From: a phage
Strand: one strand, 5' to 3'
Assembly: GCA_024613925.1 (NCBI GenBank)
Contig: GCA_024613925.1_4713.1
DNA: 64,000 bases
The stretch's first letter is position 1. Each line of letters starts with the position of its first letter. Positions 25,630 through 32,271 of this stretch are shown here, in pieces. A model generated the notes under the pieces. The model had not been told where the DNA came from. It saw only the letters and a program-made list of their open reading frames with translations, and did no database searches. The translations under genes and the position numbers were made by a program.

Positions 25630-26355
25630 TTAAGACGTTGCCATCTTATCTTCCAGAGACTTCTTCGGTAAACCATGGATAACTCCTTCCGGGGTTAAGA
25701 ACACGCAGTCTGGATTCTGCGTTCGTGAACGGTCGTCTGGACTGTTCAACGAAAACAACAACGCAGAAATACCTTTTGTCCGGTTTAACGTCGCTACGAT
25801 CACGTCAAGCTGCCGTAGCGCATCCGATACGGTTCGATGCGGAACGATTCGTGACTGTTTGAAGCTGGCTAACCGCCAAGTCTCGAACAAACAACGCAGT
25901 TTAAACACGTCGGACGGAATAGCTGTAGATCCCTGTTCGATAACCTCAACCCGATCCGCTTCAGGATAACCTACAGCAACCGCACTAAAGTGTCTTACCC
26001 CATTATGAAAATCATCGATAGACGCTTCAGCGTATTTACATACCGTACCAGAAACGACCATCACTTTTGCTAAACCGCGATAATTGATCGTTAACGGAAT
26101 ACGAAATACGCGTAAAGCATGTTCCGGATTTAATGAGACGTCATTCACTTTCGCAGATACCAGCGCACCTCGTTCATATCGAGCTTTGAACGGCAGTCCA
26201 TTATAAACGGGATTGATCACAACGCCCCCTGGGGAGGCGTTAGCGTTAAGATGAATGTTAAGCCAATCGGATACTTCCTGTCTGCTGGTTACGATTAACA
26301 TAAAACGGTCCTCCATTTCTTTTCCTTCATTCATGGCGCATATCTTCCAAATCAT
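25630..26355 (-). CDS. hypothetical protein
   Basis: 241-aa ORF. Confidence 0.5.
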   Translation of the reverse strand: MIWKICAMNEGKEMEDRFMLIVTSRQEVSDWLNIHLNANASPGGVVINPVYNGLPFKARYERGALVSAKVNDVSLNPEHALRVFRIPLTINYRGLAKVMVVSGTVCKYAEASIDDFHNGVRHFSAVAVGYPEADRVEVIEQGSTAIPSDVFKLRCLFETWRLASFKQSRIVPHRTVSDALRQLDVIVATLNRTKGISALLFSLNSPDDRSRTQNPDCVFLTPEGVIHGLPKKSLEDKMATS

Positions 26356-26977
26356 CCTTTTGTTTTGTAAATTCTGATTGCTTGCGATAAACCGTCCATG
26401 AGTCGTATATACCGTAAAAGTTCAAATGACGTGCATTTAAGTTCACAGTAAATTCTTCCACAGAGGCAAAATCAGAACGAAGCATCGAATGGAAGGTGTC
26501 GTCTCCGGTACAGCCTCCGTATCCTTCACCCTGATAGACCAAAAGCTGGTGAGGTTGGATACGTGCGGTAACCAATGCCGCTTGTGGTTTGTCGTAAGGC
26601 GGCCACGACAGTAAAATAACGTCGTACTGTGAAAGATCGATGTTTGTATAGTCGGCTTGCTGGATATCATCGATAAACGGATGGGGATGTACTGTAACAT
26701 CGTACGCGGTAATATCCTCCACGCCGAGTTTGCGTAACACGTATGTCAGGTAACCTGTCCCACAACCCAAGTCAGCGACACGTCGTCCGTAACAGATGTT
26801 CGCCAACTGGAGCGCGGTATCCATGGTTAACAACGACCATCCGACATGCTGAGTATATTCTTCACGCACAATCCATTGTTGATGGTGCGTCATCGGTTCT
26901 AAGATAGCAGCAAGCTGCTGGTACGGCAACGGCATTTTGGTTTCGCCTTGCGTGAGTAATGCGATAACATCGTTCAT
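26327..26977 (-). CDS. SAM-dependent methyltransferase with xPPY motif (amino-methyltransferase family)
   Basis: Motif I VADLGCGTGYL and motif IV-like ILLSWPPY; start set at MNDVIAL (SD AAGGAA) since hairpin 27003-27021 lies in the longer extension. Confidence 0.55.
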   Translation of the reverse strand: MNDVIALLTQGETKMPLPYQQLAAILEPMTHHQQWIVREEYTQHVGWSLLTMDTALQLANICYGRRVADLGCGTGYLTYVLRKLGVEDITAYDVTVHPHPFIDDIQQADYTNIDLSQYDVILLSWPPYDKPQAALVTARIQPHQLLVYQGEGYGGCTGDDTFHSMLRSDFASVEEFTVNLNARHLNFYGIYDSWTVYRKQSEFTKQKDDLEDMRHE

Positions 26978-27002
26978 TCTGTTTCCTTTTATCGGCATAA
27001 GC

Positions 27003-27021
27003 CCTCCCGGCATGGGAGGGT
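27003..27021 (-). terminator. GC-rich hairpin ccctccc ggcat gggaggg
   Basis: 7-bp stem; followed on minus strand by TTATGCC. Confidence 0.5.
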
Positions 27022-27118
27022 ACAATTATTCATTTATGTGGGTAAAGGTGTGGATCGGCGGCCGTTGAGGCGATAACGCAATAGAACGGCCGTTCATTAA
27101 TAACTACGGTTTTGATGT

Positions 27119-27625
27119 TCATGCTAAAATTCCTTCATTACCTAACAGTCGATTACGATGACGTCGGTACATTTGACAAAGTGTTGTGATTTGATAATGT
27201 TTGTTGTAACGTACCTCGATACGTTTTTGCACCTCTTTCCATGGAAGTTTATCGTATTGCCGATAACGATGGATTTCATTTAACATACGAAGACGAGTAG
27301 GATCGGTGTTCTTTATCGTCGTGAGCTTCACGCGTTGATATCCACGCTGTAGTCCCGATTCGGAATACGTGACGTCAAACTCATCCTGAATGATGGTGAT
27401 GATCTCCCGCCACCGACGGTTCTCGCCGTCACGTAAATGGACAACCCGCGATAAGATATCGTTCCGATTACGATGACTCAGTTTGATGTTAAGCATTGAA
27501 GCAATCGCGCTAATTGCTCTCTGACTCCGTCCTAACGCTTCACCGATTTCTTTCGATGTCATGACGCCCGCGTTTCGGCGTATGAATGCGATTTCGGTTG
27601 TTGTGTATTCTTTACCTGCTGCCAT
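27119..27625 (-). CDS. HTH DNA-binding protein, tandem paralog 1 of 6 (GcrA/Myb-like HTH)
   Basis: TTTEIAFIRRNAGVMTSKEIGEALGRSQRAISAIASMLNIKL; C-terminal W/YQR motif shared with neighbours. Confidence 0.55.
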   Translation of the reverse strand: MAAGKEYTTTEIAFIRRNAGVMTSKEIGEALGRSQRAISAIASMLNIKLSHRNRNDILSRVVHLRDGENRRWREIITIIQDEFDVTYSESGLQRGYQRVKLTTIKNTDPTRLRMLNEIHRYRQYDKLPWKEVQKRIEVRYNKHYQITTLCQMYRRHRNRLLGNEGILA

Positions 27626-28191
27626 TTCTTACCACGTGTGTTATAATAGTAACGCTGACAAAGATGTGTGTGACGATACTCCCGTTTGAACTCGACGCTG
27701 ATAATGCGAGCAACTTCTCTCCAGTTAACCCCTTCACGTCGAAGTGCTGTAATACGGTCTGAAATTCTGCACCATTCATCCGGGTCGTATCGTCGTAGCT
27801 TGAGTCGTCGTATTACGGAGGCGACACTCGCTCTCGATCGGCCAAGATGATTTGACAGCTGTTTAACCGAGTATCTGTGGATATTGTCACGAATATAGGA
27901 AATCTCGTTGTCCGTATATGCCTCATTGGTTCTCGACGAAGGGAACAGCATATACAGCTTATTCTTAATCGCGCTTTCTGTGCGTTGAAATACAGCAGCC
28001 AGCTCACTAACCGGTGGTCTGGGTATCCGGTCCGCGTAATCCTCGAGGCGTGAGAGTTCCTCATCTGTCCAGCGATGGTACTTGCGCATGGGCAACTCCT
28101 TTGTTTTTCGTGTAGTAACACCAACGTTGATACAACGCATGTTTATTCGTTGTAATCCCAAATTTAACAACAACGTCGTAGGTAATAACAT
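27559..28191 (-). CDS. HTH DNA-binding protein, tandem paralog 2 of 6
   Basis: WTDEELSRLEDYADRIPRPPVSELAAVFQRTESAIKNKLY plus second HTH; true start likely downstream (MRKYHRW). Confidence 0.55.
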   Translation of the reverse strand: MLLPTTLLLNLGLQRINMRCINVGVTTRKTKELPMRKYHRWTDEELSRLEDYADRIPRPPVSELAAVFQRTESAIKNKLYMLFPSSRTNEAYTDNEISYIRDNIHRYSVKQLSNHLGRSRASVASVIRRLKLRRYDPDEWCRISDRITALRREGVNWREVARIISVEFKREYRHTHLCQRYYYNTRGKKWQQVKNTQQPKSHSYAETRAS

Positions 28192-28564
28192 CCCAATTTT
28201 GGGTGACGTTAAGTCGTTCCGCGATAAACGCGATAATCGCTTCCCGTTCTTGCTTGGTTAGCGCACGACGAATTCCGTTAAGCCGTATAAACTGACGAAC
28301 CGAGTCATACGAACGGTTTAAATCGTACGCAATCTCCCGCAGCGATTTTTGTCTGATTACCGACTTGATGTATGTGCGTTCTTCTTCCGTATACGGCCGA
28401 TGCTTTTGACGTTGACGTATTCCCAAACGCCCCAGACGCGCGTCGACGCTGGCGCGTGTTCGCCCTGTCCGTTGCGCGATTTCATCAATCGTCATCGATG
28501 TGTTCAAATACAGATGCGTAACATCTTTCAGCTCGTCGTCACGCCACGGTCGAGATCGTCCCAT
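28061..28564 (-). CDS. HTH DNA-binding protein, tandem paralog 3 of 6
   Basis: WRDDELKDVTHLYLNTSMTIDEIAQRTGRTRASVDARLGRLGI; C-terminal ALYQRW. Confidence 0.55.
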   Translation of the reverse strand: MGRSRPWRDDELKDVTHLYLNTSMTIDEIAQRTGRTRASVDARLGRLGIRQRQKHRPYTEEERTYIKSVIRQKSLREIAYDLNRSYDSVRQFIRLNGIRRALTKQEREAIIAFIAERLNVTQNWDVITYDVVVKFGITTNKHALYQRWCYYTKNKGVAHAQVPSLDR

Positions 28565-29042
28565 CTTGTATCCCTCTTTTCTTTCTATGATGCCACCAAC
28601 GCTGATAGACAGCTTGCTTCGTACGTGTTATACCGAAATGCGCATTAACCCGTTCAGCAATGTGGTGCCAATCCTGCGTTTCTTCCAACAATGTATCAAC
28701 GAAGGCTATGAAGATCTTAGTATCAGCCTCGCTTAACCGCTTGAAACCATGACGATGTGCTATCGTTCTGATACTGTTTGGATCCCTGTTTAAATCGCGT
28801 GCGAGTTGTTTGTAACTTTTGTGTTTGCAGTGTGCTCTGATATATTCCAACTCATCGACGCTGAAACGTTTATGTGGTTTACGACGTTCAACATTTAAGT
28901 ATACCAACCTCGATTTAATTGCACCGTACGTTGTTTCCATGATTTCTGCGATTTCACGGATTTTTAATTTCGGGTGACGATAGTACAATTCCAGCAACTG
29001 TTCATCATCCTTACGATTCCATCGTCGTACTGGAGGTTTCAC
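28539..29042 (-). CDS. HTH DNA-binding protein, tandem paralog 4 of 6
   Basis: WNRKDDEQLLELYYRHPKLKIREIAEIMETTYGAIKSRL; C-terminal AVYQRWW. Confidence 0.55.
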   Translation of the reverse strand: MKPPVRRWNRKDDEQLLELYYRHPKLKIREIAEIMETTYGAIKSRLVYLNVERRKPHKRFSVDELEYIRAHCKHKSYKQLARDLNRDPNSIRTIAHRHGFKRLSEADTKIFIAFVDTLLEETQDWHHIAERVNAHFGITRTKQAVYQRWWHHRKKRGIQDGTISTVA

Positions 29043-29055
29043 AACGAGATTTCTC

Positions 29056-29523
29056 CTATTCTACGCGTTTTAATGCTTGAGTGTAGTAGAGGCTATGAAC
29101 ACCGCTTAACGTGTAATGGGTGTTAAATTCGTTATTGATGATATTCCGTATTCTCTCCCAGGTGTTATTCTCTTTTCTAAGGGTGTGTATTCGATAATAA
29201 ATCATCTCTCGACGTTGCGCTTTGCATGCAACAATGCCATAACGGTAGCAGAGTTTAGCGATTGCGTCCACGCTACGATTGAACATCGCTGCAGCTTCTT
29301 TTACGCTATGCGTCTTAAGATAATCAGCTAACATCACACGTTCTTCGAAACAGCAATAGCGGTGACGCGACATGAGTTTCCAGCGCTTGCGATTGCGGTT
29401 AATTCGACCTTGAACAGAGCCTTCTGTTCGGTCAAGCCGTGCCGCAATCTCTTGCATCGGGATACCGTTTCGGTACAGGGTAATCAATATCGCGTCTTCT
29501 TCGGGTGTCCAGTCCTTGACCAT
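29056..29523 (-). CDS. HTH DNA-binding protein, tandem paralog 5 of 6
   Basis: WTPEEDAILITLYRNGIPMQEIAARLDRTEGSVQGRINR. Confidence 0.55.
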   Translation of the reverse strand: MVKDWTPEEDAILITLYRNGIPMQEIAARLDRTEGSVQGRINRNRKRWKLMSRHRYCCFEERVMLADYLKTHSVKEAAAMFNRSVDAIAKLCYRYGIVACKAQRREMIYYRIHTLRKENNTWERIRNIINNEFNTHYTLSGVHSLYYTQALKRVE

Positions 29524-29535
29524 AGCGCCACCCCA

Positions 29536-32271
<2,736 letters not shown>

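Follow-up and report, generated by a model that had tools for sequence, protein, structure and literature searches.

The protein encoded at 26327..26977 on the minus strand of the window (the whole 64,000-nucleotide stretch of phage DNA that was analysed) is, on balance, probably a stand-alone class I SAM-dependent methyltransferase of PHROG 19090 that acts on an acceptor other than DNA. It combines a Rossmann-fold SAM-binding core, in which motif I and the ribose Asp are intact, with a conserved acceptor-side surface, and it is accompanied by no partner. Public databases already list the gene as a class I methyltransferase without a name, and the find is therefore not new. Its modest value lies in three negatives, namely that the 'PPY' motif is here not diagnostic of an amino- or DNA-methyltransferase, that there is no partner, and that the catalytic half resembles nothing characterised. 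Seen in the context of the window only, it is an accessory gene of an ordinary kind.

Gene structure and orthology

The window shares ~96 % DNA identity with Escherichia phage vB_EcoM_Goslar (NC_048170), a nucleus-forming jumbo phage (PMC11895373). The methyltransferase ORF is orthologous to Goslar gp111 (YP_009820796.1; 93 % amino acid identity by tblastn), lies at the equivalent genomic position and does not differ in kind from gp111 or from the proteins of PHROG 19090. In RefSeq, gp111 is labelled only 'class I SAM-dependent methyltransferase', and no paper was found that describes Goslar gp111, PhiCh1 ORF83 or PhiH1_425 as anything more than 'uncharacterized'. Comparison of the gene with those of Goslar and a second relative gave dN/dS values of 0.09-0.15 and the gene is thus maintained by purifying selection; it is a real, selectively maintained gene. 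The ORF, and the DLGCGTG and SWPPY motifs that the first-pass annotation had placed within it, can be read directly from the sequence. The features of the gene and its 5' region are:

26327..26977, minus strand: methyltransferase CDS, 216 aa plus stop, start ATG 26977 (ORF list, tblastn, RefSeq annotation, dN/dS and PHROG)
26978..27025, minus strand: possible N-terminal extension (ATG 26998 gives 223 aa; TTG 27025 gives 232 aa)
27002..27020, minus strand: GC-rich hairpin CCCTCCC / 5-nt loop / GGGAGGG (sequence and RNA fold)

We take ATG 26977, which is preceded by an AAGGA Shine-Dalgarno sequence 6 nt upstream, as the probable start of the gene. The start position in the Goslar gp111 annotation corresponds to ATG 26998; the extension is not kept across the family, and the GGGAGGG Shine-Dalgarno sequence of ATG 26998 is base-paired in the RNA fold within the hairpin that overlaps it. 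This hairpin is situated inside the 141-bp intergenic spacer upstream of the gene, which also contains a second GC-rich hairpin (27033-27067, minus strand; stem GGCCGUU...AACGGCC). No T-run follows either spacer hairpin, terminator prediction did not pick up the one at 27002..27020, and the z-score for the overall fold of the spacer is only -1.6.

Fold prediction and relatives

A class I Rossmann fold with seven-stranded alpha/beta topology is predicted for the protein (AF2 pLDDT 87); helices at the N-terminus precede the Rossmann core, and a single helix lies C-terminal to it. With 216 aa divided among these elements, the protein is compact and has no target-recognition domain, as first annotated. 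The call of a SAM-dependent methyltransferase is likewise upheld, as motif I, the beta2 acidic residue and the seven-stranded fold are all present, and methyl transfer is the probable activity. The protein fits no characterised family, and the earlier view that its substrate is ambiguous from sequence stands. The profile search, which had been named as a check on the annotation, assigned no small-molecule or rRNA methyltransferase family, the outcome that would have counted against it; the search assigned no DNA-methyltransferase family either. All Pfam scores of the query fall under the gathering thresholds. PHROG 19090, annotated as of unknown function, is matched with an E-value of 5.9e-17 (residues 37-198 against profile positions 34-190/191), while a profile search of 1.84 billion representative proteins recovered 8,056 relatives at E<1e-3, with 1,331 at E<1e-30.

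Generic small-molecule methyltransferases (Methyltransf_23/25/11; UbiG, TehB and the halide methyltransferase 8ajp) match only the SAM-binding half of the protein. A profile of the C-terminal half, from motif IV onwards, had zero matches among PDB sequences and Pfam, and the W-P-x-Y and GE(G)xGGC(T)xDD elements have no counterpart in generic small-molecule class I methyltransferases. Fold searches likewise returned generic matches only, with small-molecule rather than protein methyltransferases as the top Foldseek PDB matches. The closest structures in BFVD, once the phage homologues are set aside, are methyltransferases of Klosneuvirinae, Bodo saltans virus and Fadolivirus (TM 0.57-0.65; E 1e-9 to 1e-6), which are nearer than any solved structure; these giant-virus proteins share 12-21 % sequence identity with the phage protein and are likewise uncharacterised. 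The relatives constitute a distinct, uncharacterised and predominantly viral family within the class I SAM methyltransferase superfamily.

Some members of the family have unusual architectures (P0043, P0100, P0141, P0150, P0057, P0099 and P0236 from metagenomes; L116 and L117). These include tandem duplicated domains, the fused and tandem relatives matching the same PHROG 19090, relatives of 1,932-2,030 aa without any other recognisable domain, one NADAR-domain fusion, and a few relatives with C-terminal TPR repeats, one of whose contigs also encodes kinase-LRR and zf_Tbcl zinc-finger proteins. Domain fusions were considered as a clue to the substrate and set aside, the tandems, TPR repeats, giant proteins and single NADAR fusion being too sporadic.

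Conserved residues and motifs

Residue conservation was determined on an alignment of 155 family representatives, and the following elements could be distinguished:

26864..26866, minus strand: Arg38 codon; 145/155, the sole near-invariant basic residue of the N-terminal helical region
26753..26773, minus strand: motif I, D-L-G-C-G-T-G (residues 69-75); glycine loop that binds SAM, following beta1
26699..26701, minus strand: Asp93 codon; 153/155, at the end of beta2 (predicted strand 89-93)
26594..26608, minus strand: motif IV-like S-W-P-P-Y (residues 124-128), directly after predicted beta4, the canonical motif IV position
26498..26530, minus strand: signature loop G-E-G-Y-G-G-C-T-G-D-D (residues 150-160), after beta5
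26402..26413, minus strand: G-I-Y-D (residues 189-192), in the beta6-beta7 connection; family consensus G-I-H-D, D192 in 146/155

The three glycines of motif I, the sole region matched by generic Pfam and NCBIfam methyltransferase models, are kept in 148-154 of the 155 representatives. The position of D93 we take to be that of the acidic residue which binds the SAM ribose in class I methyltransferases, and R38 may contact the SAM carboxylate or the substrate. In the motif IV-like element W125 is invariant (155/155), P126 and Y128 are retained in 152/155 and 142/155, respectively, and the second Pro occurs in just 73/155 (D in 30, C in 20), while the residue before W125 varies (S in 75, C in 56 and V in 8). 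Since the second Pro is present in only these 73 representatives and Ser alternates with Cys and Val, the real motif is [S/C]-W-P-x-Y. The description of the protein as carrying an xPPY motif is thus accurate for the query; it does not carry over to the family, where the pattern is W-P-x-Y and the x of xPPY is an invariant Trp, not D/N/S. Judging from the alignment, the conservation of W-P-x-Y and of the motif I glycines is more than chance.

The loop after beta5 provides the family signature, GE(G)xGGC(T)xDD, which has no match in Pfam or PDB sequences. G150, E151, G155 and C156 are essentially invariant, and D159 and D160 are acidic in 75 % and 84 % of the 155 representatives, respectively. 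The model shows a flexible loop here, with pLDDT <50 at residues 154-156. Further near-invariant positions are L81, T157 and F162. The signature loop served as the peptide pattern for retrieving relatives from IMG/VR and species genomes. Of 248 retrieved proteins, 233 contained both elements (W-P-x-Y...GE...C).

Comparison with amino-methyltransferases

The first-pass annotation had likened the protein to amino-methyltransferases, and it might accordingly be a minimal N6-adenine or N4-cytosine DNA enzyme that methylates the phage DNA and aids evasion of host restriction; we consider this improbable. In amino-methyltransferases, motif IV, (D/N/S)-P-P-(Y/F/W), has to open with D, N or S, and this residue defines the group. 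The order of elements in the window protein, with P-P-Y after beta4 and ~54 residues past motif I, is that of the gamma class, and in HemK/PrmC and gamma-class enzymes, too, motif I precedes an aromatic motif with Pro that comes immediately after beta4. The window protein differs from them in that the catalytic Asn/Asp/Ser is replaced by a Trp found in 155/155 representatives, and in that the second Pro is variable. The layout thus resembles that of amino-methyltransferases, but their defining feature fails, and in sequence terms the PPY merely mimics theirs; it is therefore no evidence for DNA methylation.

Model searches gave a similar picture. The sole amino-methyltransferase model matched is MTS (E 7.5e-4; 19.6 bits against a cut-off of 23), over residues 63-94, which cover motif I only. 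Neither N6_Mtase, N6_N4_Mtase, MethyltransfD12, MT-A70 nor Eco57I was matched by the query in Pfam, and no PrmC_N domain was found. No DNA-methyltransferase model of Pfam or NCBIfam was matched by the query, nor any of Pfam by 44 relatives, and no DNA methyltransferase is found among the top structural matches. With W at the motif IV position and no N6/N4 or HemK model matched beyond motif I, the phrase 'as in amino-methyltransferases' cannot be retained. The sole sequence signal that favours a DNA enzyme comes from weak PADLOC matches to a Type II DNA methyltransferase model and mad2 (23 bits, E ~7e-6), which extend across motifs I-IV (residues 55-129). As PADLOC yields just such weak generic methyltransferase matches, membership of a defence system was rejected.

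In hhalign, the family profile aligns with E. coli PrmC with 93 % probability (residues 64-130 on PrmC 110-188), WPPY being placed on the PrmC NPPY with W125 opposite the Asn. This match is not specific, because the controls UbiG and TehB score equally well (95 % each), and a special kinship with HemK/PrmC was discarded. PrmA reached 92 % and CmoM and PrmB ~55 %, while Dam, RsmA, RsmD and TrmA all remained below 4 %, the value for Dam being 0.3 %. None of the alignments extends past motif IV without leaving out the catalytic loop, and the rankings, which were obtained with single-sequence templates, are weak. We place the protein outside the amino-methyltransferase, R-M and m5U/m5C families.

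Distribution and genomic context of the family

Relatives in cultured viruses are encoded by large phages of Aeromonas, Salmonella, Xanthomonas, Klebsiella, Stenotrophomonas, Pseudomonas and Raoultella, and by the haloarchaeal viruses PhiCh1, phiH and HGTV-1. At least 106 loci were found in IMG/VR, mostly on contigs >50 kb and many on contigs >200 kb, and 22 loci in 185,579 prokaryotic species genomes (one genome per species), most of them on MAG contigs. At least one of the prokaryotic-genome loci has a neighbouring gene in common with viral contigs, which hints at a prophage.

In the inspected contexts, the gene is typically surrounded by series of small hypothetical genes that share its strand. 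All-vs-all BLAST of the ORFs within 6 kb revealed no neighbour cluster common to more than 4/100 loci, and a conserved gene neighbourhood was rejected, as the large co-occurring 'clusters' are only antisense shadow ORFs of the gene itself. One such cluster, an antisense ORF of ~210 aa in 36/100 loci, overlaps the methyltransferase gene and is thus most simply a shadow ORF artefact. Among 150 immediate neighbours no Pfam family is recurrent, the top one being HNH_3 with three matches, which is also the sole nuclease to recur. No adjacent cognate restriction endonuclease or specificity subunit was present in 100 loci and the 150 immediate neighbours.

Individual contexts differ between lineages. 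The HGTV-1 homologue (L029, 4845-5489) is located within an array of >25 tRNA genes, its annotated start overlapping a tRNA-Leu. The PhiCh1 homologue (L030, 4899-5474) and that of phiH each overlap the stop codon of a gene for an N4-cytosine DNA methylase, and the PhiCh1/phiH gene cluster around the homologue also includes a C5-cytosine methylase. The contexts of HGTV-1 on the one hand and PhiCh1/phiH on the other are lineage-specific and point in opposite directions. On two further contigs, of 410 kb and 810 kb (L111 and L112), the family member has as neighbours genes for a TnpB-like protein, a group II intron reverse transcriptase and ClpP, together with a restriction-alleviation gene of the Lar type; the setting resembles the accessory region of a huge phage or of some other large element.

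The position of PhiCh1 ORF83 and PhiH1_425 immediately downstream of, and overlapping, an N4-cytosine DNA methyltransferase gene speaks for a DNA enzyme, whereas the absence of a restriction enzyme or other partner across ~100 loci speaks against it. Goslar DNA is digestible with several restriction enzymes (PMC6563267), which also counts against DNA methylation, though this result is not specific. In PMC12625630, the nucleus shell of nucleus-forming jumbo phages is described as excluding host defence factors. With neither a restriction partner nor a conserved neighbour in these loci, an acidic family, and a phage nucleus described as keeping defences out, the suggested role in evasion of host restriction is not sustained.

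That the protein methylates RNA, be it tRNA or rRNA of the host or of the phage, seems unlikely, if less so than methylation of DNA. A universal target of this kind would fit the spread of the family across viruses of different hosts. The linkage to tRNA arrays suggested by HGTV-1 was nevertheless rejected, as tRNA genes show no enrichment centred on the gene in 80 viral loci, three of which account for most of the tRNA density, and tRNA genes are lacking both in Goslar (PMC6563267) and in the window. The protein has no RNA-binding domain, and the low hhalign probabilities for RsmA, RsmD and TrmA likewise weigh against RNA as the substrate.

Charge

The window protein has a pI of 4.9, and the family as a whole is acidic, with a median pI of 5.1, a median net charge of -10 and 90 % of its members net negative. 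Only two conserved columns are basic (R38 and K199) as against eight acidic ones. In the same computation, E. coli PrmA, PrmB and PrmC gave pI values of 4.3-4.8, a likeness to the window protein, and Dam and RsmA values of 7.8-8.8, with RsmD and TrmA intermediate. The acidic charge, the two conserved basic columns and the lack of a target-recognition domain argue against DNA, and the charge and basic columns also against RNA. This case against nucleic acids is founded on charge and on the weak rankings of single-sequence templates, and is suggestive; RsmD and TrmA too have a pI below 6.

Other activities considered

In TrmA/RumA and in RsmB-type m5U/m5C RNA methyltransferases the catalytic Cys is situated directly after beta5, and we presume a resemblance between this Cys and the loop around C156. 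The protein could on this basis be a C5-pyrimidine methyltransferase, with the invariant Cys156 as nucleophile, acting on RNA or free nucleotides. This appears very improbable, given that C156 lies 5-6 residues past beta5 within a Gly-rich loop and not at the strand end, that the tRNA_U5-meth_tr models of Pfam and NCBIfam are not matched, and that there is no RNA-binding module. The hhalign probability to E. coli TrmA is 3.6 %, for motif I only, and a TrmA-like Cys nucleophile was dropped as unsupported by that alignment.

The protein might also not function as a methyltransferase, and instead sequester or consume SAM or transfer another part of it. Phages are known to target SAM pools, as with the SAM-degrading enzyme of T3, and the substrate pocket matches no known family. 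However, neither the fold nor the motifs depart from those of ordinary methyltransferases, and W125, Y128, E151, C156, D159/160 and D192 are as conserved as the SAM-binding residues. Such conservation of the acceptor-site residues argues for a specific second substrate, and a function other than methyl transfer appears highly doubtful.

Proposed mechanism and acceptor

For a methyltransferase with a non-DNA acceptor, we infer the catalytic activity, the individual residue roles and the acceptor class as follows. SAM would be held by motif I (G71-x-G-x-G75), D93 and probably R38, as in other class I enzymes. The acceptor pocket would be formed by the aromatic pair of W125-P-x-Y128 after beta4, E151 at the end of beta5, the G-G-C156-T-x-D159-D160 loop and D192, with its geometry derived from sequence and secondary structure only. 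The enzyme would work without a partner and most likely methylate a nitrogen nucleophile, borne either by a basic protein or by a small cationic metabolite.

A pocket lined by aromatic and carboxylate groups in an acidic protein is better suited to cationic or amine acceptors than to a polyanionic nucleic acid, and a non-DNA acceptor is favoured for this reason. Taken together, a protein or small metabolite is the likely acceptor. A protein substrate ranks first and is a plausible choice, although it falls short of being probable by itself; a small molecule, in second place, is possible but somewhat doubtful. RNA follows as an unlikely third and DNA comes last, with slim prospects, and other SAM chemistry makes up the remainder. 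Several observations run counter to this ranking. The preference for a protein has against it that the top Foldseek PDB matches are small-molecule enzymes, and further points against the ranking are the pI values of RsmD and TrmA, the PADLOC matches to Type II DNA methyltransferase and mad2 models, the location of the PhiCh1/phiH homologue after an N4-cytosine DNA methyltransferase gene and that of the HGTV-1 homologue inside a tRNA array. There is furthermore no homologue of known substrate, and the invariant Cys is unaccounted for by a simple N-methyltransfer mechanism.

A more far-reaching proposal is that the W-P-x-Y and GE(G)xGGC(T)xDD elements mark a catalytically distinct, essentially virus-specific class which modifies a universal cellular target during host takeover, with the loop Cys being catalytic. 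The target might, for example, belong to the translation apparatus, or it might be a pool of nucleotides or metabolites. Such a class would be shared by large phages and haloarchaeal viruses, its link to giant viruses resting on structural neighbours alone. We regard this proposal as speculative and of low probability.

Since the family numbers in the thousands, with large phages as its main carriers, the identification of one substrate would annotate a sizeable portion of viral dark matter. Once found, the substrate could reveal a host-takeover modification, and only then would the active-site signature be noteworthy.

Neighbouring genes in the window

Compared with Goslar (NC_048170), the region around the gene lacks ~861 bp at ~27030-27035, corresponding to gp112 and most of the gp113 acetyltransferase gene, and ~711 bp with gp120 at ~29859, while the remaining region is collinear at 92-96 % identity. 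The Goslar gp111 locus therefore differs from that of the window in having gp112-gp113 beside it. Functional coupling to the gp113 acetyltransferase was rejected, because gp112 and gp113 are both missing in the window.

Directly upstream of the methyltransferase gene are six tandem paralogous small ORFs (27119-29883, minus strand; ~115-176 aa), which correspond to Goslar gp114-gp119. Each has weak Pfam matches to Myb/SANT, sigma-70 region 4 or other helix-turn-helix domains, and these paralogues form a single BLAST cluster with 11 members in three loci. A 689-aa ORF (29849-31918, minus strand) is the orthologue of Goslar gp121, which is annotated as an NAD-dependent DNA ligase. This ORF clusters by BLAST with an ORF at a Lachnospiraceae locus (L018) that also carries a methyltransferase of the family.
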